Shown here: positions 1,214 through 57,362 of the stretch, in pieces
Position numbering within the stretch: position 1 is the first letter of the stretch
How the letters are laid out: every line of letters starts with the position of its first letter
Source: an uncultured Gammaproteobacteria bacterium
Lineage (GTDB): Bacteria; Pseudomonadota; Gammaproteobacteria; JAURND01
Direction of reading: 5' to 3'
Length of the DNA stretch: 64,000 bases
NCBI GenBank assembly: GCA_963813895.1
Contig: CAWFAS010000001.1
Coordinates: 473,290 to 537,289 of the forward strand
Program-made: the position numbers and the translations under genes
Notes under the pieces: model-generated
Seen by the model: the letters and a program-made list of their open reading frames with translations, nothing else
Database searches by the model: none
What the model was told of the DNA's origin: nothing

Positions 1214-1330
1214 TTTTTTATTTTTGGAGCAGGGGGCCATTATTAAGCCTATAGGGTCCCCTTTTCCCAGTACACCATGAAGATCCTAATGTGTGGTATG
1301 AGTGTGATTGGATATGTGCCATCGGAGGCT

Positions 1331-1380
1331 ACCCCCTTCCTAACCTTCCCCCGCAAGCGGTGGAAGGTTAGGAAGGGGGC
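1331..1380. repeat. Short palindromic element, family A half-unit (ACCCCCTTCCTAACCTTCCcccgcaagcggtGGAAGGTTAGGAAGGGGGC)
   Basis: A 19-bp inverted repeat around a CCCGCAAGCGG core. The same arm sequence recurs in the long family A elements at 29832 and 42347. Confidence 0.7.
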
Positions 1381-1421
1381 AGCTTCTAGTGGCGCACACG
1401 TCGAAAACCCTTCTGGCAATC

Positions 1422-4400: not shown

Positions 4401-5564
4401 TCAGCTGGCCTGTTTTGGGATATTTTTTATATACCCGCCAGGGACAGCCGTTATAAAATCTTGCAGCTCTAAGACCAAGAGCCCGGAAAAAACCACTTGG
4501 GTCATCAATCCACTCCTTGCTACCATTTGATCGACAGTGGTAGCTTCGTACCCCACACACTCTAACAGCTGCTGGCAATTGGCATCAAGGAAATTTTTCT
4601 TGTTCGTCTCTTCAGTCTCCTGCAGGGGATCCTGTTTGGCAGCGGCAATAGCGCCTAATTCTTCTAAGATATCCGTCACGTTCTCGACTAACTTGGCTCC
4701 CTGGCGTATCAGCAAATGACAACCCTGTGCTAAGGGATTGTAAATGGAACCTGGAATTGCAAATACCTCTCGCCCCTGTTCAGATGCCAGTCGTGCCGTG
4801 ATTAATGAACCGCTACGCAAGGTGGCTTCCACCACCAGCACCCCCAGGCTCATACCGCTGACCAGTCGGTTACGACGCGGGAAATGGGCTGCCTTTATTC
4901 CAGTGCCTATTGGAAATTCTGAAACCAGTGCACCCTGTGCAGTAATCTGTTCCGCCAGTTGCCGGTGTGTGGGTGGATAAACCAGGTCAAGTCCACAGCC
5001 TTGCACTGCAATGGTCGGCTGCCCATTCTTTAATGCGCCTTTGTGGCTTGCCGCATCTATGCCTAAAGCCAGGCCGCTGGTGATGGTCAAACCAGACTGA
5101 GATAAATGGGCAGCAAATTGCCGTGCTGACTCTAATCCTGTGGGTGTTGGGTTTCTGCTCCCGACCATGGCAAACTGCCGAGTGTGCAATAATTTGGGAT
5201 CACCAGCGACAAATAAAATCGGTGGCGCATCGGGTATTTGCCTCAGCAAATAGGGGTAGCGGTCATCCGTCCAGGTGACGATATGGTGCTGGGGAGATTC
5301 AGCCCACTTAAGATCAATCTGCACACCAGTCCAATCCGGTTTTGTTACACCCTGAATGATCCCTTCTGGCAAACCCAAAGAGGACAAGCGCGCCACTGAG
5401 GTATTAAATAATGGGGATAGTTGCGGAAAAAGCTGCAATAACTTGAAAAACCGTAGAGGGCCTATGCCAGGAGTTCGCCACAAAGCCAGCCAGTAATGCA
5501 GATCTTCGGCGAGTTGTTTTGCGGTCTGTGGTTGAAGGGTAGTCTGTGAAGTGTGGGTTAGCAA
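4401..5564 (-). CDS. dprA: DNA processing protein DprA (Smf)
   Basis: 387 aa. Rossmann-like DprA core: VGSRNPTPTGLESARQFAAHLSQSGLTITSGLALGIDAASHKGAL. A C-terminal winged-helix region is present. Confidence 0.9.
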   Translation of the reverse strand: MLTHTSQTTLQPQTAKQLAEDLHYWLALWRTPGIGPLRFFKLLQLFPQLSPLFNTSVARLSSLGLPEGIIQGVTKPDWTGVQIDLKWAESPQHHIVTWTDDRYPYLLRQIPDAPPILFVAGDPKLLHTRQFAMVGSRNPTPTGLESARQFAAHLSQSGLTITSGLALGIDAASHKGALKNGQPTIAVQGCGLDLVYPPTHRQLAEQITAQGALVSEFPIGTGIKAAHFPRRNRLVSGMSLGVLVVEATLRSGSLITARLASEQGREVFAIPGSIYNPLAQGCHLLIRQGAKLVENVTDILEELGAIAAAKQDPLQETEETNKKNFLDANCQQLLECVGYEATTVDQMVARSGLMTQVVFSGLLVLELQDFITAVPGGYIKNIPKQAS

Positions 5565-5689
5565 AGGCAGTTCTTTTGACAGAGGGTTTTAAGGATGACC
5601 AAATGAACCATTGTTGCAGGACGTCGCACTAGGGGCAATACCGTAACCTCTTCTTCAGCTTCATTCAGCACTCCAGATTGAGGGTCGGC

Positions 5690-5806
5690 TTTCTCCCTTC
5701 TCCCGCTTGCGGGAGAAGGGTCGGGGATGAGGGTGTATCGATCTGCATTTGTGCCCGAGGAAACACCCTCACCCCCCGCCCCTCTCCCGCAAGCGGGAGA
5801 GGGGCG
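5690..5806. repeat. Composite palindromic element, a diverged family A member. Two inverted arms (CCCTTCTCCCGCTTGCGGGAGAAGGG and CGCCCCTCTCCCGCAAGCGGGAGAGGGGCG) flank a central hairpin GAGGGTGT...ACACCCTC.
   Basis: Three hairpins read directly from the sequence. The arm cores CTTCTCCCGCTTGCGGGAGAAG are one- or two-base variants of the family A core CTTCCCCCGCAAGCGGGGGAAG. The element lies in the dprA / glyS intergenic region. Confidence 0.65.
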
Positions 5807-5909
5807 AAAGCTAGCCTATACTGAATAGTTACTAAAATATTTTGTGTCGATCCTCAGCCTGGGAGAGGGGATTACACTGCATAATCTGGCATTATTCAAC
5901 AATCTAAAA

Positions 5910-7982
5910 TTACTGCGCCAATACCGAAATATCCGCCACCTGCAAAAACAACCGCTGCAGCTGATAAAGCAAAGCCAGGCGGTTGTTACGCAATTTTTCA
6001 TCCGCCACCATGACCATGACTTCATCAAAAAAGCGGTCTATAGGGGCGCGTAGCGCAGCGAGGTTAGTTAATACTTCTGTATATTGGGCTTTATGGAATA
6101 GAGGTTCTACTTCCTTATTTTTTTGCTCCATCGCTGCTAACAACTGGTGTTCGGCTGCATCGGTCAGTAGGGTAGGGTTAACAGGATGATTTCGCCACTC
6201 TCCGTCAGGGTCTTTTAAAATATTGCTGACACGTTTGTGAGCTGCGGCCAACGCTTTAGCTTCCGGTAAAGATTGAAAATGTTGAACGGCCTGGACTCGA
6301 TAATGAAAATCCAGTGCCTGCGTGGGCATACGGGCCAATACTGAAGAGAATACTTCGGGCTCCACACCACGGTCCAAATACCAGGCGCGTAGCCTTTCCA
6401 TCATGAAATCGAAAGTTTGTTCGACTGCGGAGGGATTAACCAGTTTAGGGCCATAACCCGCAGCGGCTTGATTCAGCATTTCAAGCAAATCTAAGGGCAG
6501 TTTTTTTTCGATTAGTATACGCAGCACCCCCAACGCGGCGCGACGTAAACCAAAGGGGTCTTTTTCTCCGCTGGGCGGTTGGTTAACACCAAACAAGCCA
6601 ATAAGGGTGTCAATTTTGTCAGCAATAGATACCAGGCAGCCCATGTCAGATTCAGGTAGTGTATCTCCCGAAAAACGGGGTTGGTAATGCTCGCGCACTG
6701 CTAGGGCGACTGCTTCAGATTCGCCATCTTTCGTAGCATAGTAATAGCCCATTACACCTTGTAGTTCAGGAAATTCGCTCACCATAGCTGTGACGAGATC
6801 GGCTTTTGCCAGCAGACCGGCACGTTGTGTTTGTTTAGTATCAGTGCCCAGCTGTTGTCCCAGATATCCGGCCAGCATTGAAATGCGCTGGGATTTGTCA
6901 AACAATGTGCCTAGCTTGTGTTGGAAAAGGACTTTTTTTAATTCCTCCAATCGCGATTCCAAGCGATGTTTTAAATCAGTATGATAAAAAAACTGCGCAT
7001 CTGACAATCGCGCACGAATCACACGCTGATTACCGGCAATCACCCGTGCCGGATCTTTGCTGGCAATATTGCTGATTATCACGAAATAGGGCAGAAGTTT
7101 ATGCTGGTCGTCCACCACTGGAAAATATTTCTGATGACTTTGCATGGCGGTAATAATCGCTTCAGGAGGTACTTCAAGAAATTGCGCTTCGAATTCGCCC
7201 AACAAGGCGACTGGCCATTCTACCAGGCTGTTCACTTCATCCAGTAACTCCTCATCTATCACGGCAATGCCTTTATGCCTAACCGTCTGTTGGATTAATT
7301 CCCGTATGCGCAGCTTGCGTTCATTGTAATCAGTCAGCACCTGTCCAGATTCTTTTAATAATGCTGCGTATTCGTGCGGGTTGGAAATAGTAATGGCATC
7401 AGGATGGTGAAAGCGATGACCATAGGTGAGGTTAGAGGTGGTCTGTCCTAAAATGTCAGCAGCTATTATCTCTTTATCAAACAACAGCACCATCCAATGC
7501 ACTGGCCTAATAAAGGAGAAGCTGTGATCACTCCAGCGCATAGGTTTGGCTACAGGCAGTTGTTGTAGTGCCTGAGTTAGAATGGCGGGTAATAATTTGG
7601 CTGTTGGCTCGCCAGATTGTTGTTGGCGGAAAAATAACCACGCGCCCTTGTCAGTTTCTTGGGTCATAAGCTGATCTACGGTGGTATTACAGGCATTAGC
7701 AAAACCCAAACAGGCCAAGGTGGGGTGACCTTCGCTATCAAATGCAGCTTTGACTGCCGGACCTCTTTTTTCCACCACGTGGCTCGGTTGTTCAGTGACT
7801 AGATCTTTGAGATAGACGGCCAGGCGGCGCGGTGTGGCAAATAGCTTGATTGCATTATAGCCTAGGCCGGCTTTTTCCAGGCCAGAGCATAAATTGGCGC
7901 CCAAAGCTTCAGAAAGCCTTTTTAATTGTTTGGGAGGCAGTTCTTCAGTACCGATTTCAACTAATAAATCACGCGAGTTCAT
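5910..7982 (-). CDS. glyS: Glycine--tRNA ligase beta subunit
   Basis: N-terminus [20 protein letters not shown] is the canonical GlyS start. The track ORF runs to 8117, but the upstream 45 codons overlap glyQ and have no homology. The chosen start overlaps the glyQ stop by 14 nt, as is usual for glyQS. Confidence 0.9.
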
Positions 7983-26109: not shown

Positions 26110-26191
26110 GTTGAGTTTTAGCCTTTAACGGAGCGACTAACCTTAAAGTTCATTGAAGTCATCTTAAAAAATTAGCTTTCAGGACGGCTGC

Positions 26192-26263
26192 TACCGAGCC
26201 GCGACCGTTAGGGAGCGTTTAAATTAGATTGTTTAAACGCTCCCTAACGGTCGCGGCTCGGTA
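26192..26263. repeat. Palindromic element, family B core (TACCGAGCCGCGACCGTTAGGGAGCGTTT aaattagattgttt AAACGCTCCCTAACGGTCGCGGCTCGGTA)
   Basis: 29-bp near-perfect inverted arms. The same arms occur at 41303, 44064 and, as a half copy, at 51393. The ybhP stop codon lies inside the element. Confidence 0.75.
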
Positions 26264-27018
26264 CGTAAATCAAACTCTGCATAAAGTGGGGCATGATCGG
26301 AAAGCTTGCGCCAGGGTAGTTTAGTAAAACGTTCACAGTTTAATACTTCTATCCCCCGAAAATAAATGCGATCCACTGGTAATGCAGGGCCCCATACCGG
26401 AAAAGATCTGGCATATTTACCAGTTAATACTTTAAAAGCTTCTCGCAAATTCAAATGGGTTTCCAGGAAATGCTGTGCATGACTTTGCCAGTCATTAAAA
26501 TCACCAGCAATAATCAGGGGTTCATTTGCGGGCACATGCGACTCAATACGATCACAAAGTGTGCCTAATTGCTTTTCGCGTTCCGTCCTAAATAGCCCAA
26601 AGTGTATACAAATAGCATGAACAGGGGTAGTGAACCCAGGGATGTCCAAGACACCATGCAGCACACTGCGGCTGGCCATTTCATGCTGCGATACATCAAT
26701 ATTTTCCCATCGTATAAATGGAAATTTACTTAGAATGGCATTGCCATGATGCCCGCGCTCATAAATGGCGTTTTTTCCATAAATAAAATGCGGCCATAAC
26801 TGCGCGCCTAAAAATTCAAACTGCGATTGTTTGGGCCAGTTTTTTATAGTGATTTCATGACTAGTATGTTCGCCCTGTATTTCTTGAAGGAAAACCAGGT
26901 GGGGGTGAATTTCATCGATGGCTTCCTTAATATGATGTAAAACAAAGCGTGAGTGAGTAGTGCTAAAGCCTTTATGGATGTTATAAGTCATTATTTTTAA
27001 GATATTATTTTGTAACAT
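26233..27018 (-). CDS. ybhP: Endonuclease/exonuclease/phosphatase family protein (YbhP-like)
   Basis: 261 aa and collinear with E. coli YbhP (IMTYNIHKGF...FLQEI...GHHGNAILS...AGDFNDW...LSDHAPL). It sits adjacent to a clsB-type PLD gene, as in E. coli. Confidence 0.85.
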   Translation of the reverse strand: MLQNNILKIMTYNIHKGFSTTHSRFVLHHIKEAIDEIHPHLVFLQEIQGEHTSHEITIKNWPKQSQFEFLGAQLWPHFIYGKNAIYERGHHGNAILSKFPFIRWENIDVSQHEMASRSVLHGVLDIPGFTTPVHAICIHFGLFRTEREKQLGTLCDRIESHVPANEPLIIAGDFNDWQSHAQHFLETHLNLREAFKVLTGKYARSFPVWGPALPVDRIYFRGIEVLNCERFTKLPWRKLSDHAPLYAEFDLRTEPRPLGSV

Positions 27019-29022: not shown

Positions 29023-29775
29023 ATGAGCACAGAAAACGATGGTTTACCCCGGGGGCGAGGAATATATCTGCTGCCTAATTTATTTACCCTAACTGCGTTA
29101 TTCGCAGGCTTTTATGCCATTGTAGCGGCCATGAAAGGCAATTTTGATTATGCGGGTATTGCTGTATTTATTGCTATGGTAATGGATACATTGGATGGTC
29201 GTGTGGCGCGGTTAACCCACACCCAAACTGCATTTGGCGCTGAATTAGACAGCCTGTCGGACATGGTATCATTTGGAGTAGCTCCCGCGTTGATTGTATA
29301 TACTTGGGGCTTAGGTACGCTTGGCAAAGCGGGGTGGTTGGTAGCGTTTATTTTTACTGCTGGCGTCGCCTTGCGTCTTGCGCGATTTAATACTCAGTTA
29401 GGTGTTGCGGATAAACGTTATTTCCGTGGTCTGCCTTGTCCGGCTGGAGCGGCATTAATAACCAGTCTGGTATGGAGTTTGCAGGAATTTGACCTGAATA
29501 ACCCTATGCTGCGTGTACTAGTTGCTATTGTTACTGCGATCACGGCGCTGCTGATGGTCAGTAACATAATGTATTACAGTTTCAAGGATTTCAATCTAAA
29601 AAATCGCGTGCCTTTTATTGTTATTATATTAATAGTATTAATTTATGTATTGATTTCTGTAGATCCCCCCTTGGTGGGGTTGGTTTTGTCCTGTGGTTTT
29701 GTAGTGTCGGGGCCGGCGTTATGGCTGTGGCGCTTTAAGCGTCATTGGCGCGGAAAGTCTGGAAAGGAAAAGTAA
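29023..29775 (+). CDS. pssA: CDP-diacylglycerol--serine O-phosphatidyltransferase
   Basis: 250 aa. CDP-alcohol phosphatidyltransferase motif D.LDGRVAR.......G.ELDSL.D, with multiple TM helices. Confidence 0.9.
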   Translation: MSTENDGLPRGRGIYLLPNLFTLTALFAGFYAIVAAMKGNFDYAGIAVFIAMVMDTLDGRVARLTHTQTAFGAELDSLSDMVSFGVAPALIVYTWGLGTLGKAGWLVAFIFTAGVALRLARFNTQLGVADKRYFRGLPCPAGAALITSLVWSLQEFDLNNPMLRVLVAIVTAITALLMVSNIMYYSFKDFNLKNRVPFIVIILIVLIYVLISVDPPLVGLVLSCGFVVSGPALWLWRFKRHWRGKSGKEK

Positions 29776-29831
29776 ATATTATAAAGAGGGTTCTGTTACT
29801 TAACTGATCAAATAACACTGATGGGCTCAGA

Positions 29832-29989
29832 GCCAGTAGAGGCTGCCCCCATCCTAACCTTCCCCCGCAAGCGGGGGAAGGGACTTGCTCGAGCCAGTAT
29901 GGGATTGGGCGCATAACTTAACTTATTGCCCAACCAGTTCCTTCCCCCGCTTGCGGGGGAAGGTTAGGATGGGGGCAGCCTCTACTGGC
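29832..29989. repeat. Long composite palindromic element, family A (about 158 bp). Inverted arms GCCAGTAGAGGCTGCCCCCATCCTAACCTTCCCCCGCAAGCGGGGGAAGG each contain an internal hairpin, and they are separated by a spacer of about 60 nt.
   Basis: Read directly from the sequence. It sits between the convergent pssA and parE genes. A second copy lies at 42347-42485. Confidence 0.8.
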
Positions 29990-30052
29990 ACTGGATTCGG
30001 CCATGTATCAGGTTCAATAAATATATGAGTCCCATCACCTAAGCAGCTGAAC

Positions 30053-31948
30053 TTATGTCTCCGCCAGATTCCCTTTCTGTTCCAGCCAAGCCTTCCTGTC
30101 AGAGGCACGTTTTTTCGCTAATAACATATCCATCAGGTCAAAGGTTGTCTCATCTCCCACCAGCAGTTGCACTAAGCGACGGGTATCGGGGGACATAGTC
30201 GTTTCACGTAATTGCGAGGGATTCATTTCCCCCAAGCCTTTGAAACGCTGAATATGTACGGTGCCTTTTTTCTTTTCTGCAGCGATCCGGTCCATAACGC
30301 CCTGCTTTTCTTCATCATCAAGCGCATAAAACACTTCTTTGCCAATATCAATGCGGTAAAGCGGCGGCATGGCCACATGGAGGTGGCCGGCAGCCACCAC
30401 GGGTAGGAAATGGCGGAAAAATAGGGCGCATAATAAGGTGGCAATGTGTAACCCATCCGAATCGGCATCAGCCAGAATGCAGACTTTACCATAGCGCAAG
30501 CCGGTTAAATCGTCCGCGCCTGGATCTACCCCGATGGCCACAGCGATATCATGAATCTCCTGGGACGCCAGCACCTGCGAGGAATCTACTTCCCATGAAT
30601 TGAGGATCTTGCCACGTAGGGGCATGACTGCCTGAAATTCTCGGTCTCTGGCTTGTTTGGCTGATCCGCCAGCGGAATCCCCTTCAACTAAAAACAATTC
30701 CGTGCGACCAGGATCTTGATTGGTACAATCAGCCAATTTGCCCGGTAGTGCAGGACCAGCGGTGACTTTTTTGCGTAGCACCTGCTTGCTGGCACGGCTG
30801 CGTTGTTGGGCATTTTGAATGACCATTTCCGCCAAAGCTTGACCCAGTGTTACATTTTCATTGAGCCATAGGCTGAAAGTATCTTTGACCACCCCAGTCA
30901 CAAACGCAGCACACTGTCGTGAAGTCAGGCGTTCTTTGGTTTGACCGGAGAATTGCGGGTCGCGCATTTTGATGGAGAGTACGAAATTACATTGATCCCA
31001 TACGTCTTCGCTAGAAAGCTTGATGCCTCTGGGTAATAACTTGTGGATTTCACAAAATTCCCGTAACGCTTCTAAAAGACCGGTGCGGAAGCCATTCACA
31101 TGTGTGCCACCTTGAATGGTCGGAATTAAGTTAACATAGCTTTCAGTGACGGTTTGGCTATCTTCAGGCAGCCAGGTCACCGCCCAATCCACCATTTCAG
31201 TATTTCCGGCTGCATGGCCCAGAAACAAATCTTCTGGCAGGCGTACCGCATCATTTAGGGCGTCATGTAAATAGGCTTTTAGTCCATCTTCATAGAACCA
31301 GGTTTCAGATTCGCCATTGGCTTCTTGGGTAAACCGCACGGTTAATCCCGGGCATAATACCGCTTTGGCGCGTAACAAATATTTTAAAGGTGCAATGGCA
31401 AATTTAACGGAATCAAAATATTTGGCATCAGGCCAAAAGTGCACGCTTGTGCCAGTCTCAAATTTGCCGCAACTTCCCGTTATTTTTAACGGCCCATCTG
31501 GATCGCCGCCTTTAAAAGACATTTGATGCACTTTGCCTTCGCGTTTTACCTTGACCTCCAATTGTTTTGATAGTGCATTAACCACGGAGATGCCAACGCC
31601 ATGCAGCCCTCCAGAGAACTGATAGTCTTTGTGGGAAAATTTGGCTCCCGCATGCAGACGGGTCAAGATCAGTTCTACGCCGGAAATCTTTTCTTCCGGA
31701 TGCATATCCACCGGCATGCCGCGGCCATCATCAATCACTTCTAGCGAGCCATCAGCATACAGGATTACGTCAATACTTTTAGCATGACCGGCAACTGCCT
31801 CGTCTACACTGTTGTCTACCGCCTCCATCGCTAGATGGTTGGGGTTGTGGGTGTCGGTATACATGCCGGGACGGACCCGCACGGGATCGAGCCCGCTGAG
31901 GACTTCGATAGATTCCGCGGAATATTGACGTGGGGCTTGGGGTGTCAT
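30053..31948 (-). CDS. parE: DNA topoisomerase IV subunit B
   Basis: 631 aa, which is ParE length and lacks the GyrB insert. GHKL ATPase N-terminus (EVLSGLDPVRVRPGMYT), Toprim domain (EGDSAGG), and a PLRGKILN motif. Confidence 0.9.
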   Translation of the reverse strand: MTPQAPRQYSAESIEVLSGLDPVRVRPGMYTDTHNPNHLAMEAVDNSVDEAVAGHAKSIDVILYADGSLEVIDDGRGMPVDMHPEEKISGVELILTRLHAGAKFSHKDYQFSGGLHGVGISVVNALSKQLEVKVKREGKVHQMSFKGGDPDGPLKITGSCGKFETGTSVHFWPDAKYFDSVKFAIAPLKYLLRAKAVLCPGLTVRFTQEANGESETWFYEDGLKAYLHDALNDAVRLPEDLFLGHAAGNTEMVDWAVTWLPEDSQTVTESYVNLIPTIQGGTHVNGFRTGLLEALREFCEIHKLLPRGIKLSSEDVWDQCNFVLSIKMRDPQFSGQTKERLTSRQCAAFVTGVVKDTFSLWLNENVTLGQALAEMVIQNAQQRSRASKQVLRKKVTAGPALPGKLADCTNQDPGRTELFLVEGDSAGGSAKQARDREFQAVMPLRGKILNSWEVDSSQVLASQEIHDIAVAIGVDPGADDLTGLRYGKVCILADADSDGLHIATLLCALFFRHFLPVVAAGHLHVAMPPLYRIDIGKEVFYALDDEEKQGVMDRIAAEKKKGTVHIQRFKGLGEMNPSQLRETTMSPDTRRLVQLLVGDETTFDLMDMLLAKKRASDRKAWLEQKGNLAET

Positions 31949-37780: not shown

Positions 37781-37828
37781 ATGCTTTTGAGTATTCTAGC
37801 AGCGTCCCTATCATGCTGCACTTTAAGG

Positions 37829-37857
37829 TACTGTAAAACAATAACCTATCTTTTTAC
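37829..37857. repeat. Solo copy of the family C2 terminal repeat (CTGTAAAACAATAACCTATCTTTTTACAG)
   Basis: 26 of 26 bases match the left terminal inverted repeat of the 290-bp element at 57064-57352, with a final CAG closing a short palindrome. It lies in the nudF / pcm intergenic region. Confidence 0.65.
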
Positions 37858-47256: not shown

Positions 47257-48917
47257 AACACTTACATATCAAACACTTTACGATCATTACGGAACATGAG
47301 TTGGAATTAGGCAGTGGGCTTACGGTACTGACAGGAGAAACTGGCGCGGGAAAATCTATCTTAATAGATGCCTTGGGCATTGTCCTGGGACAACGAGCGG
47401 ATGCCTCACTCATACAAAATAGTCGCGATCGCTGTGAAGTAACGGCTATTTTTGAGATAAGTAATATTAAAGCAGCTCAAGAATGGCTCACTGAGCAGGA
47501 ATTTGATGAAGGGGAAGAATGTTTGATCCGGCGGGTAATTAATCGTGATGGTCGTTCGCGCAATACTATCAATGGACGGCCATGCACGGTACAACAAGTG
47601 CGGGAATTGGCAACTTTATTAGTTCATATTCACGGCCAGAATCAGCATTCATTGCTATTAAAAGCCGATTATCAGCGCCAGATATTGGATAGTTTTGCGG
47701 GCCATGAGGACCTCTATCAGCCAGTGCGCGACTGTTATGCAAACTGGCGACAACTGCAACAAGCATTAGGGGCGATCGAGGCTGCTGACGATTATAGTTC
47801 CCAACAAGAACTGTTGAATTTTCAGTTACAGGAATTTATTCAATTGGATTTGCAGCCCGCGGAGCTAGTGAAGCTAAATCAGGAACAGCAGACTCTGGCG
47901 TATGCAGAGCAATGGCTTATGTCTTGTCAGCAAGTCATTGCCCTGCTCGCCGAAGATGAATGCAGTCCAGTATTAACGAGTTTATATTCCGCCAAGCAAC
48001 TATTGAACAATCTCTCAGGCGCCAACCCCAATCTGTCAGCCGCTGGTGAACTATTGCAGCAGGCCATTATTCAATCCGAAGAAGCTATCAACGAAGTCCG
48101 TAAAGCACAAAATACCATAGAACCCGATCCACAGCGTCTGACTGCAATTGATCAGCGTTTGGCCCTCATCCAGGATTTAGCTCGTAAACATCGCGTTGAA
48201 CCCGAAGCCCTATTGCAAAAACAACAAAAAATCAGTGAACAATTACAACAACTCTGCTCGCGGGATGAACGGCTAGCCCTGTTAAAGCTGCAAATCGCCG
48301 ATAAAGTTGCCCAATATAAAACTGCAGCTAAAAAACTCACCGCCAGCCGCGATAAGGCGGCGCAACGCTTAAGTAAGGCGGTTTCGGAGCAAATGCGTGT
48401 TCTGGGTATGCCTAATGGTCGATTCACCGTCCAATTAACCTCCCAAAATAGGGATAGTCCGCACCCTTATGGAGATGAGGGGGTGGAATTTTTAGTAACT
48501 GCCAATGCTGGGCAGCCCTTGCAACCCTTAAGTAAAGTAGTCTCTGGTGGCGAATTATCACGTATTTCTTTGGCCATGCAAGTAATAACTGCTAAAGCCA
48601 ATGCAGCTCCGACCCTTATTTTCGATGAGGTTGATGCGGGAGTAGGCGGTCGAACAGCGGAAATTGTAGGGCAACAATTGAAAAAATTAGGCCAAGCAGC
48701 CCAGGTGTTATGCGTGACCCACTTGCCCCAGGTGGCCGCTCAAGGAGACCTGCACCTATACATCCAAAAAGTGGAAAAAAATAATGCGGTAGAGACAGTG
48801 ATTCAGCCTTTAGGCTCTATGGAAAAAATTGCCGAGATTGCACGTATGCTGGGAGGAGTGACCATCACTGAGAAAACGCTGGCTCATGCTAGGGAGATGT
48901 TGGGGATAGAGGTTTAA
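47250..48917 (+). CDS. recN: DNA repair protein RecN
   Basis: 555 aa. Walker A (GETGAGKSILIDAL), a long coiled-coil, and a C-terminal signature LSKVVSGGELSRISLAM, plus Walker B (LIFDEVDAGVGG). Confidence 0.93.
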   Translation: MLKHLHIKHFTIITEHELELGSGLTVLTGETGAGKSILIDALGIVLGQRADASLIQNSRDRCEVTAIFEISNIKAAQEWLTEQEFDEGEECLIRRVINRDGRSRNTINGRPCTVQQVRELATLLVHIHGQNQHSLLLKADYQRQILDSFAGHEDLYQPVRDCYANWRQLQQALGAIEAADDYSSQQELLNFQLQEFIQLDLQPAELVKLNQEQQTLAYAEQWLMSCQQVIALLAEDECSPVLTSLYSAKQLLNNLSGANPNLSAAGELLQQAIIQSEEAINEVRKAQNTIEPDPQRLTAIDQRLALIQDLARKHRVEPEALLQKQQKISEQLQQLCSRDERLALLKLQIADKVAQYKTAAKKLTASRDKAAQRLSKAVSEQMRVLGMPNGRFTVQLTSQNRDSPHPYGDEGVEFLVTANAGQPLQPLSKVVSGGELSRISLAMQVITAKANAAPTLIFDEVDAGVGGRTAEIVGQQLKKLGQAAQVLCVTHLPQVAAQGDLHLYIQKVEKNNAVETVIQPLGSMEKIAEIARMLGGVTITEKTLAHAREMLGIEV

Positions 48918-49055
48918 AAGTAGACAGGCCGGGTACTACGGCCCCTCCTTTAACAAGCCTGTGAAATGGGTTATTATGCGGCAGCAATAAATAACTCACC
49001 CGATCAGAGATCGGACGCTCTACACGATTCAATAAAATTTTGTTTGGATACCATT

Positions 49056-49376
49056 ATGCGCAGGCTAACAATAATAAGTTTATGTTTAACTAGTTTTTTA
49101 CTGGCTTCCTGTTCGTGGATACATCCCTACCAACCCAGCGTACAACAAGGGAATATTTTAACCAATACACAATTGGAACGGGTGCGGGTGGGAATGAGTA
49201 AGGACCAAGTAGAAGAAGTATTGGGATCACCCGTTCTGGTAAATACTTTTAATGATAATTACTGGCCTTATGTTTATACCTACCAGCGTAATGGCGGCCC
49301 CATTATTAAAAAGCAGCTGGATTTGTATTTTAGTAATGACCGTTTGGTGCGCATAGAAGGAAATTATCGACAATAG
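49056..49376 (+). CDS. bamE: Outer membrane protein assembly factor BamE (SmpA/OmlA lipoprotein)
   Basis: Lipobox LLASC. BamE fold motifs present (GNILTNTQLERVRVGMSKDQVEEVLGSP, YWPYVY). Start chosen at MRRLTIISL. The track ORF begins 90 nt upstream with no support. Confidence 0.85.
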   Translation: MRRLTIISLCLTSFLLASCSWIHPYQPSVQQGNILTNTQLERVRVGMSKDQVEEVLGSPVLVNTFNDNYWPYVYTYQRNGGPIIKKQLDLYFSNDRLVRIEGNYRQ

Positions 49377-49380
49377 TGAT

Positions 49381-49492
49381 CTGTCATCCTGAACAAGCTG
49401 TCATCCTGAACGCAGTGAAGGATCTCCATAGGGTGGCTTTTCAGCAATATGTGCCACCATACGGAGATCCTTCACTGTGTTCAGGATGACAG
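49381..49492. repeat. Family B-type element with the same 14-bp terminal repeats but a different palindromic interior. The left terminal repeat is tandemly duplicated.
   Basis: Sequence is CTGTCATCCTGAAC aag CTGTCATCCTGAAC, then the palindrome GCAGTGAAGGATCTCCATAGGGTGGC ... GCCACCATACGGAGATCCTTCACTG, then GTTCAGGATGACAG. It begins 5 nt after the bamE stop. Confidence 0.75.
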
Positions 49493-49503
49493 CATACCCA
49501 ATC

Positions 49504-51333
49504 TCACTCCACCGTCACAGATTTAGCCAAATTGCGTGGCTGGTCTACATCAGTCCCCTTCAAAACTGCCACATGATAGGCCAGCATCTGTAACGGAATT
49601 GTATAGACGATGGGCGCAACAATGCTCCCTGTGTGCGGCATGGGAATTAGAGTTACATCAGCGGATTCTGCAAATGTTTGACCCGCTTCTCCGAACACAA
49701 TCAGCTGGCCGCCACGTGCGCGTACTTCTTGTAGATTGGAAGTTAATTTTTCTAATAAGCTATCATGTGGGGCAACCGCAATAACTAGCATATTTTCATC
49801 AACTAATGCCAAAGGCCCATGTTTAAGTTCACCTGCGGGATAGGCTTCAGCATGGATGTAGGACAATTCTTTAAGTTTCAGTGCGCCCTCCATGGCGATC
49901 GGATATTCAATGCCGCGTCCTAAAAATAAAGCGTGTTGTTTCTCCACAAATCTTTTAGCCAATTCAGCAATGGTTTTATCCAGCAATAAAACTTGTTTAA
50001 TTTGGGTTGCCAGATCACGTAATTGCGCAACAACCTCTGTTTCCTTGTCCGCAGTGACTTTATAACGCCTGCCCAATACAGTAGTTAACATTAAGAGCGC
50101 TACTAATTGCGTAGTAAATGCTTTTGTAGAAGCAACCCCAATTTCTGTCCCTGCTCTCGTCAGCAAGGTGAAATCTGCTTCACGCACAAGCGAGCTTTCT
50201 GGGGCATTGCAGATAGCTAGGGTGCTTTCATAACCTAATTCTTTTGCTTGGCGTAGCGCTGCTAATGTGTCTGCGGTTTCTCCTGATTGTGACAAAACCA
50301 CAAATAAACTTCCGGGCTGGACGACTGGCTGGCGGTAACGAAATTCGCTGGCAATTTCAACTTGGCAGGGAATTCCCGCTAGGCTTTCTAACCAATAACG
50401 CCCTACCATACCTGCATGATAGCTCGTTCCACAAGCGGCAATTTGTACTTGTTTAATTCGGTCGAAATGAGCTTCGGCTTCAATGCCAAAAGCGGGTTCC
50501 AGGATTCGGTTTTGGGTAATTCGCCCTTCCAGCGTATTGTCAACCGCAGTGGGTTGCTCAAAAATTTCTTTCAGCATAAAATGGCGATAATTGCCACGAT
50601 CTATTCCACTGTTGTCTTGTTGGGAAATATGTAGGTCGCGCTTGACCTCTTGTCCTTTGATATTATAAATAGTTACATTGTGCTGACTCACGTCAGCGAT
50701 GTCGCCATCCTGCAGAAACATAAACTGGTTGGTGACTGGTAATAAGGCGAAACTGTCAGAGGCAATAAAATTGGCCCTCTCGGTAATTCCAATGGCCAGG
50801 GGTGGCCCGTTGCGTATAGCAATCAATCGTTCCGGTTCGCGGCGATTTAACACCACTAATGCAAATGCGCCCTCCAATTGCTGCGCTACCAGCCGCACGG
50901 CGGTTAAAAAGTCATGTTGCTGCAGGTAATGATGTATGAGATGGGCAGCTACCTCCGTATCTGTTTCGGAGGAAAATTCATATCCTTGCTCAATTAATTT
51001 TGGCCGGAAATGATCATGGTTTTCAATGATACCATTGTGAACAATAGCAATATCACTCAGCGAAAGAATGGGGTGGGCGTTTTGTTCAGAAGGCACGCCA
51101 TGTGTTGCCCAGCGGGTATGGGCTATACCGGTACAACCGGTCACAGGATGCTCTTGCAGCGCTGCTTGCAATCGAGACACCTTACCCTCAATACGCACTC
51201 GCTGAATTTCTCCAGTAGAATCCAACACCGCTATTCCAGCTGAATCATAACCACGATAAGCCAGCCGTTTCAAACCTTCTAAGAGGATGGGTGCTACATT
51301 CTGCGCTGCCGCAGCTCCGACGATGCCACACAT
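49504..51333 (-). CDS. glmS: Glutamine--fructose-6-phosphate aminotransferase (isomerising)
   Basis: 609 aa. N-terminus MCGIVGA is the Ntn amidotransferase start. Two SIS domains follow, ending ...VDQPRNLAKSVTVE. Confidence 0.95.
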   Translation of the reverse strand: MCGIVGAAAAQNVAPILLEGLKRLAYRGYDSAGIAVLDSTGEIQRVRIEGKVSRLQAALQEHPVTGCTGIAHTRWATHGVPSEQNAHPILSLSDIAIVHNGIIENHDHFRPKLIEQGYEFSSETDTEVAAHLIHHYLQQHDFLTAVRLVAQQLEGAFALVVLNRREPERLIAIRNGPPLAIGITERANFIASDSFALLPVTNQFMFLQDGDIADVSQHNVTIYNIKGQEVKRDLHISQQDNSGIDRGNYRHFMLKEIFEQPTAVDNTLEGRITQNRILEPAFGIEAEAHFDRIKQVQIAACGTSYHAGMVGRYWLESLAGIPCQVEIASEFRYRQPVVQPGSLFVVLSQSGETADTLAALRQAKELGYESTLAICNAPESSLVREADFTLLTRAGTEIGVASTKAFTTQLVALLMLTTVLGRRYKVTADKETEVVAQLRDLATQIKQVLLLDKTIAELAKRFVEKQHALFLGRGIEYPIAMEGALKLKELSYIHAEAYPAGELKHGPLALVDENMLVIAVAPHDSLLEKLTSNLQEVRARGGQLIVFGEAGQTFAESADVTLIPMPHTGSIVAPIVYTIPLQMLAYHVAVLKGTDVDQPRNLAKSVTVE

Positions 51334-51392
51334 AGACTATCTCCTGTAAATTATGCTGTAGGATACCTTATAATATAGTTTTTTAGCAATTT

Positions 51393-51422
51393 CACCGAGC
51401 CGCAACCGTTACGGAGCGTTTA
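51393..51422. repeat. Family B half-element (CACCGAGCCGCAACCGTTACGGAGCGTTTA), a single arm
   Basis: Matches the left arm of the 26192 / 41303 / 44064 elements with 3 mismatches. No partner arm is present, so it is probably a decayed copy. Confidence 0.55.
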
Positions 51423-51470
51423 TTGTTAAACCTCGGCCATAACCTTAATTGAATTAGCGCGGATCTAGCA

Positions 51471-56874: not shown

Positions 56875-57066
56875 CCTCAGGGCTTGTGCAAGAATAATTC
56901 TTCACATTAGGCGCTCATTATGGCATCATCTTCAAGCGCTCCTCAATCGAAAAACCTCGAAAGACGTCAAGTATTCCTGCGATTTTTCGTGATGAAGGTG
57001 CGTTTAAATCTAATACCCTGACTTCCCGCCTAATGTGAAGAATTATTCTTGCACAAGCCCTTAGGC
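56875..57066. repeat. Family C1 element: 35-bp perfect terminal inverted repeats (AGGGCTTGTGCAAGAATAATTCTTCACATTAGGCG ... reverse complement) flanking about 113 bp of non-palindromic interior
   Basis: Read directly from the sequence. The interior contains a 33-codon ATG-initiated reading frame of doubtful significance. Confidence 0.75.
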
Positions 57067-57352
57067 TCTGTAAAACAATAACCTATCTTTTTAACATCCC
57101 ATCTAAGACCCATCTTCGCAGGCGGGAGGGGATAGAAAAACACTTACATAGAACAACCGACGTAGTCGTCCCGGCATGGAAGCCGGGATCCAGATCGCAG
57201 GAAGTGAAAGTTTCGCTTTCCTGCGCCCTGGATCCCGGCTTCCTGCCGGGACGACGTTCCGTCGACTATGCGCGCATTTTTCTACCCCCTCCCGTCTGCA
57301 AATCTGAGTCTCATCTGGGCGCTAAAAAGATAGGTTATTGTTTTACAGAGCC
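57064..57352. repeat. Family C2 element: a 290-bp multiply nested imperfect palindrome with 30-bp terminal inverted repeats GGCTCTGTAAAACAATAACCTATCTTTTTA
   Basis: Three tiers of inverted symmetry (outer repeats; GGCGGGAGGGGATAGAAAAA / TTTTTCTACCCCCTCCCGTC; inner CGACGTAGTCGTCCCGG...CCGGGACGACGTTCCGTCG) around a central GCAGGAAGTGAAAGTTTCGCTTTCCTGC hairpin. It abuts C1 and ends 11 nt before the argS start codon. Confidence 0.8.
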
Positions 57353-57362
57353 TTAATGCGAA

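Follow-up and report, generated by a model that had tools for sequence, protein, structure and literature searches.

A 64,000-nucleotide stretch of DNA from an uncultured gammaproteobacterium (here called the window) carries two composite palindromes of ~150 bp, designated family A copies 1 and 2, together with a collapsed form and a diverged relative at 5688-5811. The repeating unit of these structures is a 39-nt module and not the ~150-bp composite. In family A two such modules are joined tail to tail in inverted orientation, and the element at 5688-5811 joins two copies of a sister variant head to head. Family A probably represents an untagged, non-autonomous and non-coding repeat of the type known from repetitive extragenic palindromes (REPs) and bacterial interspersed mosaic elements (BIMEs), and no open reading frame (ORF) is associated with its elements. 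A sequence-only reading of the same DNA had already proposed a family resembling REPs, BIMEs or MITEs (transposable elements of the miniature inverted-repeat type). This holds as far as a dispersed extragenic family of hairpins with inverted dimers, a collapsed form and, elsewhere than in this genome, alternating arrays is concerned, but not for the ~150-bp composite as its unit. The roles that it suggested, as a substrate of REP-associated tyrosine transposases or a target of insertion sequences, are so far unsupported.

A repeat finder located four inverted-repeat elements in the window, comprising the two composite palindromes, one collapsed hairpin and the diverged relative (Table 1). The palindromes and their short and diverged relatives lie where the sequence-only reading had placed them, and the two long copies are indeed near-identical, with 93-95% identity between their arms. 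The arms are also hairpins, as proposed, but are 55-58 nt rather than 45 bp long. Copy 1 is inverted relative to copy 2, as seen in the inverted-repeat pair and by alignment, and the spacers of both copies align at common ends, AACTG(G)TTGGGCA ... AGTCC. The 22-nt core CTTCCCCCGCWWGCGGGGGAAG occurs six times in the window with up to three mismatches; no occurrence was expected from 100 dinucleotide-preserving shuffles. Each element was predicted to fold into one long hairpin, with energies of -145 (copy 1), -126 (copy 2), -69 (collapsed form) and -103/-105 kcal/mol (5688-5811) and z-scores of -8 to -18, depending on element and strand.

Within a composite, the cores repeat each other in inverted orientation (GCAAGC, then GCTTGC) and do not form a direct target duplication; being palindromic, they are also direct repeats of each other at 20 of 22 positions. 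Seven base pairs of the arms differ on both sides between copies, a degree of co-variation reached in only 7 of 500 shuffles. The outer stem of copies 1 and 2, GCCAGTAGAGGCTG, measures 14-17 nt; it is absent from the module loci of other genomes and found no match in a scan of JGI metagenomes. The element at 5688-5811, which had been thought to share the architecture of the long copies, consists instead of related building blocks in permuted order, head to head, its cores lying on the outside and its G/C arms on the inside. A profile search with the conserved unit detected no further copy in the 64 kb and none inside a gene; the window holds six module copies and one variant dimer, all of them extragenic.

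The anatomy of the module was derived from 62 instances lined up with one another. The consensus, CCCCC[A/T]TCCTAACC-TTCCCCCGCAAGCGGGGGAA-GG[G/A]AC, is asymmetric and spans 39 nt, comprising a 14-nt C-rich arm, a 20-nt perfect hairpin (TTCCCCCG-CAAG-CGGGGGAA, with a stem of 8 bp and a 4-nt loop) and a GGRAC tail. Most positions from -7 to +30 show conservation of at least 84%, except for two two-state positions, [A/T] at 60% and [G/A] at 47%. The value drops to 63% at the last base (+31) and then to background on both sides. The G+C content of the module is ~69%, compared with 45% in the window. Neither of the tags GTAG and CGTC is present in the consensus; GTAG was seen solely within the outer stem of copy 1, and neither copy 2 nor the short form conserves it. 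The inner G tracts of the window arm GGGGGAAGGTTAGGATGGGGG have only two G each, and variants from elsewhere, such as GGGGGAGGGNNGGGGAGGGGG, fit the pattern of a G-quadruplex or i-motif. That the arms might adopt such a state is an idea prompted by this pattern.

The module is not confined to the window. A census in which a genome collection was scanned for the exact 22-mer CCTAACCTTCCCCCGCAAGCGG returned at least 57 loci; the unit is no flank of an rRNA or tRNA gene. Many of the loci are from metagenome-assembled genomes (MAGs), several lie on contigs of 0.5-2.6 Mb and one comes from an isolate. They are spread over the phyla Pseudomonadota (alpha, beta and gamma classes), Chloroflexota and Armatimonadota. 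The gammaproteobacterial carriers include the MAG assemblies CAVZRN01 and JBGQKF01, Steroidobacter and Cardiobacteriaceae; among Betaproteobacteria the module was found in Burkholderiales, Nitrosomonadales, Eikenella and others, and among Alphaproteobacteria in Azorhizobium, Xanthobacteraceae and Rickettsiales. The Chloroflexota are represented by five Dehalococcoidia assemblies, one of which is a complete chromosome of 2.59 Mb, and the Armatimonadota by one Fimbriimonadia MAG. Between the window copies and unrelated loci, stretches of 41-46 nt are 100% identical. Related variants with 86-88% identity are present on Rhizobium, Shinella and Azospirillum replicons. No match was obtained in 5,426 genomes of Escherichia coli.

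Neither of two candidate vectors was retained. For phages, the exact 22-mer was without a match in viral contigs, as was a blastn search in phage records; for plasmids, the only matches were on chromid-like replicons of Rhizobiales and Azospirillum. The alphaproteobacterial variant differs from that of the window by only a few C/T changes, and some of the exact matches between phyla may for this reason be samples of a very large variant cloud rather than recent transfers. The occurrence of the same cloud consensus in distant phyla would still have to be explained. The searchable literature yielded no description of the 39-nt module, with only a CRISPR repeat variant of Klebsiella surfacing, and a keyword search for palindromic repeats shared across taxa found nothing.

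The module is present in several copies per locus and in more than one arrangement. Individual 8-kb loci hold three (L002), six (L009) or five (L053) modules, and L055 holds six within 2.3 kb. Neighbouring modules were joined tail to tail in 15 pairs, head to head in 3 and directly in 10. Tail-to-tail dimers occur at L045 and L057, where the spacer is partly homologous to that of copy 1, and at L027 and L044 a GTAG-type REP is nested in the spacer of the dimer. Head-to-head dimers and long mosaic arrays are present in the DAITQM01 MAG; at its loci L033, L035, L010, L011 and L042 a 27-nt mini-hairpin unit, CAAGGCGGGTTCCCGCAAGCGGGGGAA, is repeated in tandem after the module, and whole composites recur about every 200 nt, giving BIME-like mosaics of several hundred bases. 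At L055 (Dehalococcoidia, positions 1-2292), at least six modules have invariant arms and differ in the central dinucleotide of the loop, which reads AA, TT, CA, TC or GA. Variation limited to the loop is what would be expected if stem and arm were constrained and the tip of the loop were free.

The module is also found inside other repeats. A 290-nt MITE-like element with inverted ends of its own, ACCTGAGTTCGGGATAAG, encloses a head-to-head pair of modules and is common to Cardiobacteriaceae and Eikenella. Its presence in two oral genera from different proteobacterial classes suggests transfer between them.

In other genomes, modules lie in frame within genes. The module encodes the peptide P(H/L)PNLPPQAGEG (13 codons) in an E2 acyltransferase (L004), where the insert PLPNLPPQAGEG has the context …GATG-PLPNLPPQAGEGT-AALK…, and in MeaB (L047), where the insert PHPNLPPQAGEG has the context …MLT-PHPNLPPQAGEGN-ITYW…; one module at L055 probably codes for part of the C-terminal tail of an ORF. 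Alignment of the E2 proteins revealed that the insert is present, with amino acid divergence, in homologues that are 80-94% identical and missing from P0010, P0028, P0036 and P0058 (71-81% identical). Its presence with divergence across homologues indicates that the insert is old in this protein and has been inherited as coding sequence. The inter-domain linkers of the Xanthobacteraceae E2 proteins (L004, 3919-5286, and the aligned homologues) contain, besides PLPNLPPQAGEG, further repeat-like segments, …PAKAGIQ…RFGGNE… and …PLAGEGRV…, and judged by these segments the linkers appear to have been colonised repeatedly by palindromic repeats.

Comparison with the nearest relative (ParE 89% and aldehyde dehydrogenase 84% identical in amino acid sequence; orthologous DNA ~70-77% identical; synteny over ~30 kb) bears on the gain of the copies. 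The module was not found in 43 kb of this relative and is absent at both comparable sites. At the site of copy 2 the nuclease and aldehyde dehydrogenase genes of the relative overlap by 4 nt (ATGA), and sdaA occupies the site of copy 1. The relative carries the sister family as head-to-head dimers, CCTTCTCCCCTTGTGGGAGAAGG and GGGCGGATGAGGGG (L066, L061), that are homologous to 5688-5811 in the window. The likeness of the copies to each other within the window (93-95%) far exceeds the DNA identity between the genome and its relative (~70-77%). We hold with low confidence that copy 2 separated a gene pair that formerly overlapped and was probably translationally coupled. The relative also differs in gene order over 29776-30052 and 44050-51470 (L061, L066): sdaA lies between parE and pssA, and the order and orientation of glmS, bamE-recN and nadK are different. 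The spacers in which gene order breaks contain palindromic elements in at least one of the two genomes.

De Bruijn assemblies break at multi-copy sequence. Three independent Logan contigs (run ERR11718638; L058, L070 and L069) end inside palindromes of the window, at 26238, 29861, 42461, 44092 and 57328. Because the ends at 29861 and 42461 lie inside the family A elements, many copies are inferred for the genome.

No target-site duplication flanks copies 1 or 2, and among 57 instances elsewhere duplications of at least 3 nt were not above expectation; the sole signal in the duplication scan, AC/AC, belongs to the module consensus. A clean empty site was sought and not obtained, the relatives being too diverged; in the distant MAG of L044, pssA is followed by def, a different gene.

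The elements of the window all lie between gene ends, as the sequence-only reading had stated, each beginning 3-120 nt past a stop codon or the 3' end of rnpB. The collapsed form is situated between the convergent rnpB (RNase P RNA; 3' end at 1218) and topA (3' end at 1422), and the sister-variant dimer between the tandem genes glyS (3' end at 5910) and dprA (start at 5564). Copy 1 occupies the space between pssA (stop at 29775) and parE (stop at 30053), whose 3' ends converge, and copy 2 is flanked by two tandem genes, for an S1/P1 nuclease (stop at 42311) and an aldehyde dehydrogenase (start at 42526). Neither a promoter consensus nor a hairpin followed by a T-run was found to coincide with the composites, and no T-run lies downstream.

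Searches with Rfam 15 identified only RNase P in the window, the best sub-threshold matches of the element being noise from miRNA-like or CRISPR-DR hairpins; 18 other module-bearing loci gave only tRNA, RNase P and TPP. The claim that the first 45 nucleotides of the window, taken for a fragment of 6S RNA, contain the same motif did not hold: CCCCTGCAAGCGG (13-29) matches the module profile at the level of chance (E=4.3), and positions 1-120 gave no 6S match in Rfam. The presumed 3' fragment of 6S RNA at 1-45 is too short for confirmation by Rfam; the ORF at 51-653 is a candidate for the cyclo-ligase gene that would be expected after 6S RNA.

The window ORFs that were examined comprise housekeeping genes and genes for ankyrin-repeat and Sel1-repeat proteins; Pfam scans detected no transposase among them. 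By its ParE relatives the host is placed among uncultured Legionellales/Coxiellales-like Gammaproteobacteria, the ParE of Coxiella being 71% identical. An island of low G+C content (35-38%) at 11228-16720 encodes a 1335-residue ankyrin-repeat protein and a Sel1-repeat protein, which are typical of host-associated bacteria of this kind; direct repeats of 108 nt at 15638-16493 correspond to the Sel1 repeats. Mechanical ORFs of 55-61 residues run across the elements at 29735-29914, 29923-30108, 42325-42498 and 42447-42614, with peptides such as PHPNLPPQAGEG and PSPACGGRLGWG. They are derived from the repeats and should stay unannotated as genes.

Table 1. Positions of the module-based elements of the window and loci of the MITE-like element that encloses the module (arms located with the repeat finder)
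Feature	Position	Strand	Description
Family A copy 1, tail-to-tail dimer	29828..29993	.	Outer stem, C-arm, core hairpin, 52-nt spacer, core hairpin, G-arm, outer stem; arms 29828-29885 and 29936-29993 (58 nt, 97% complementary, 50-nt spacer between arms)
Copy 1, outer stem, lineage-specific	29828..29845	.	(CAGA)GCCAGTAGAGGCTG; pairs with 29976-29993; compensatory changes between copies
Copy 1, left 39-nt module	29846..29884	+	CCCCCATCCTAACC TTCCCCCGCAAGCGGGGGAA GGGAC; profile E=1.3e-14
Copy 1, spacer	29885..29936	.	Small extra hairpin TTGGGCGCATAACTTAACTTATTGCCCAA; ends as in copy 2 spacer; part resembles the L045 and L057 spacers
Copy 1, right 39-nt module	29937..29975	-	Reverse complement CCCCCATCCTAACC...GGAAC; loop GCTTGC on the + strand; profile E=1.4e-14
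Family A copy 2, tail-to-tail dimer	42345..42486	.	Inverted relative to copy 1; 34-nt spacer between modules; arms 42345-42401 and 42430-42486 (57 nt, 96% complementary, 28-nt spacer between arms)
Copy 2, left 39-nt module	42360..42398	+	Profile match
Copy 2, right 39-nt module	42433..42471	-	Profile match
Collapsed form	1315..1396	.	Single hairpin with one core (full palindrome 1332-1379) and outer stem; arms 1315-1354 and 1357-1396 (40 nt, 83% complementary)
Sister-variant dimer, head-to-head	5688..5811	.	Core CCTTCTCCCGCTTGCGGGAGAAGG, G-arm GGGGATGAGGGTG, spacer, C-arm CACCCTCACCCC, core CCTCTCCCGCAAGCGGGAGAGG; arms 5688-5739 and 5760-5811 (52 nt, 87% complementary)
MITE-like element of ~290 nt	L005, L021, L025, L026, L029, L032, L037, L051; L038		Cardiobacteriaceae (first eight loci); Eikenella (L038)

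Other palindromic repeats are present in the window. A second family, with the core ACCGAGCCGCGACCGTTAGGGAGCGTTT and its complement, occupies 26182-26266, 41299-41405, 44063-44145 and 51383-51426, each directly 3' of a gene; its arms are 94-100% alike among the copies at 26182, 41299 and 44063 and 91-94% complementary with the copy at 51383. A palindrome at 49397-49493 has a different inner core and shares the outer arm GCTGTCATCCTGAAC with the element at 41299-41405, this arm being directly duplicated at 49381-49410. The outer arms and the inner cores appear to combine as exchangeable modules. A MITE-like element at 57063-57365 has perfect inverted ends of 31 nt, AGGCTCTGTAAAACAATAACCTATCTTTTTA, around nested palindromes, including a CGTC-tagged REP-like pair formed by GTCGTCCCGGCATGGAAGCCGGGATCCAG and its complement at ~57166-57256. 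The AGGCTCTGTAAAACAATAACCTATCTTTTTA end occurs a third time at 37826-37856, and a separate inverted repeat of 39 nt lies at 56875-57065.

Among known systems, family A most closely recalls REPs and their inverted doublets (REPINs). In both, a short G+C-rich hairpin carries an unpaired flank, numerous extragenic copies follow closely on the 3' ends of genes, inverted doublets fold up as a single long hairpin, and a target duplication is lacking. Like the module, Pseudomonas REPs commonly have a G-C-rich stem with GCTTGC/GCAAGC at its centre. The module differs in having a 14-nt arm in place of the 4-nt tag and in its occurrence in three phyla, whereas REPIN populations are described as lineage-specific and vertically inherited. 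With enterobacterial BIMEs the elements share the mosaic of opposed hairpin units, conserved linker pieces and both types of junction. Longer arrays occur at the DAITQM01 and L055 loci of other genomes; the window itself holds dimers only, and the E. coli genomes contain no sequence match.

Head-to-head and tail-to-tail dimers, arrays and in-gene repeats have been described for REPs by Di Nocera et al., as have families without a tag (PMC3733652). Untagged REP-like stem-loop families are known from Brucella (Bru-RS), Bordetella, Mycobacterium, Deinococcus and cyanobacteria (PMC3733652, PMC2267715), and family A resembles these palindromic intergenic repeats of ~100 bp, which have no conserved tag or known transposase. 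The insertion of palindromes in frame and their inheritance as a peptide segment are features of the Rickettsia palindromic elements (RPEs); these are, however, 100-150 bp long and confined to Rickettsia, unlike the widespread 39-nt module, which has no in-gene copy in the window. Bru-RS or the Rhizobium mosaic elements (RIME) may be sequence relatives of the module.

In the proposed scheme, two modules inverted tail to tail around a short spacer would form the composites, equivalent to a REPIN, and head-to-head joining would give the 5688-5811 type, so that dimers and arrays would both come from units joining in alternative ways. The collapsed form at 1315-1396 would have arisen by deletion or slippage between the two near-identical palindromic cores, as is conceivable because the cores are also direct repeats of each other. 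Copying would take place in trans, by an enzyme that reads the folded single-stranded hairpin and the adjacent arm. The HUH/Y1 mechanism of REP-associated tyrosine transposases (RAYTs) and of IS200/IS605 leaves no duplication. By analogy with these systems, a hairpin-reading enzyme of the HUH/Y1 type is proposed with moderate confidence as a candidate for this role, which could also be filled otherwise. Copies just 3' of genes are probably co-transcribed and would form very stable hairpins in 3' untranslated regions (UTRs). Since the copies sit in 3' UTRs, they may, like REPs, act as barriers to exonucleases or to read-through; this analogy is drawn with low confidence, and such a role would be a side effect rather than that of a designed terminator.

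Several observations weigh against a REP/BIME-type origin. No homologue of the E. coli RayT was detected by phmmer in the window and 58 loci (best E=0.65), which is a weak negative given that RAYTs are single-copy and that the window covers 64 kb of a contig of at least 1.06 Mb. At 57 module loci the adjacent ORFs matched 160 Pfam families; no family was enriched, and the 25 most frequent include no transposase. The module is without the GTAG/CGTC tag of RAYT-linked REPs, and a control, a Chloroflexota RAYT, had classical GTAG dimers rather than the module at its flanks. The relatives, at ~75% DNA identity, are too distant to provide a clean empty site, exact ends or a target, and the copy number in the genome, of which 64 kb was covered, is inferred rather than counted. 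The fold displays no strand preference in copy 1 and the 5688 element and one of 5 kcal/mol in the short form, and near-identity across phyla is unlike vertically inherited REPIN populations. An attempt to read the strand asymmetry (G·T versus A·C mismatches in the arms) as selection at the RNA level was discarded as circular, since anchoring on the T-arm forces G·T in dimers with mixed arms.

A broader reading takes the 39-nt module, nearly unchanged in at least three phyla, as an independent mobile unit that has spread among bacteria and is copied by undescribed machinery other than RAYTs. We consider this a tentative possibility, distinctly less probable than an untagged REP/BIME-type repeat. 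The module would multiply within genomes and invade intergenic DNA, other MITEs and, in frame, genes; the copier could be an unrecognised HUH-type or hairpin-specific enzyme or an RNA- or replication-templated process, and the composites would be the packaging adopted by one lineage.

It is unlikely that family A consists of ordinary MITEs, that is, deletion derivatives of an insertion sequence (IS) with a DDE transposase, whose terminal inverted repeats would be the 55-58-nt arms and whose parent IS would reside elsewhere. The long inverted ends, the size of 140-170 bp and the intergenic sites do recall bacterial MITEs such as Correia, ERIC and RUP, the outer stem is lineage-specific, as MITE ends usually are, and in Cardiobacteriaceae and Eikenella the module rides in a MITE-like element. 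Yet target-site duplications are missing at copies 1 and 2 and not above expectation in the 57 instances elsewhere, no parent IS was seen in the window or the loci, and transposases are absent from the window ORFs examined and not enriched near copies. The conserved part, moreover, is an internal, asymmetric module that often occurs singly, in direct arrays or in genes, unlike the terminal repeat of an IS. Still less probable are immobile RNA hairpins evolved by the host and kept by selection locus by locus, either as terminators lacking a U-tract or as stabilisers of mRNA 3' ends. The position of all copies just past gene 3' ends, the extreme stability of the hairpins and the co-variation of their arms would suit such a function, and the loop as read on one strand, G(CUUG)C, is among the known stable tetraloops of RNA. 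Against it stand the 41-46 nt that are identical between unrelated loci and phyla when flanking genes reach at most 77% even to the nearest relative, the absence of the module from both comparable sites in that relative, and its occurrence in arrays and in frame within coding sequence. The composite hairpins are not directly followed by a T-tract, unlike intrinsic terminators, and an RNA function would be compatible with mobility without being a substitute for it.

A role as a landing pad, in which the palindrome would be a preferred target of IS110/IS1111- or IS5-type elements or a breakpoint of rearrangement, is about as improbable as immobile RNA hairpins. A precedent exists in Bru-RS1, a palindromic repeat of Brucella that is reported to serve as the insertion site of IS711 at YTAR (PMC3163539), and the module contains a conserved CTAA. 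The coincidence of gene-order differences with palindrome-carrying spacers would also agree with this role. However, neither an interrupted module nor an IS was seen in the window or the fetched loci, any likeness of Bru-RS to the module is putative, and being a target would leave the multiplication of the module unexplained. Most improbable of the alternatives is a small RNA gene, or a remnant of a repeat of the CRISPR type that a hairpin-binding protein such as Cas6e would process. Its attraction lies in the arrays of 27-nt hairpin units in the DAITQM01 MAG and in 18 nt, TTCCCCCGCTTGCGGGGG, that are identical to part of a type I-E repeat variant of Klebsiella (PMC8847753); the latter identity is a hairpin resemblance only. 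No Rfam family reached threshold, the CRISPR-DR matches scoring 14-15 bits against a threshold of 39, and no promoter consensus was found. The repeats are inverted and two per site, with no unique spacers or regular spacing, and no cas gene was present among the window ORFs examined (translations, Pfam) or in Pfam-annotated syntenic relatives for 21.6-40 kb.

For the annotation of this genome, the elements are ordinary REP-like repeats that should be masked, as they break short-read assemblies and spawn spurious ORFs. What is unexpected is that an untagged 39-nt unit occurs nearly unchanged in Proteobacteria, Chloroflexota and Armatimonadota, in multiple copies, invading genes and residing in other mobile elements, when REP-type repeats are usually viewed as lineage-specific partners of a resident RAYT. 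The module offers a concrete sequence with which the enzyme could be sought by co-occurrence across genomes. If this distribution reflects active mobilisation and not ancient constraint, it would imply that small DNA hairpins are copied by a mechanism that is very widespread and has gone unrecognised, and the module would be a recurrent source of short protein insertions.

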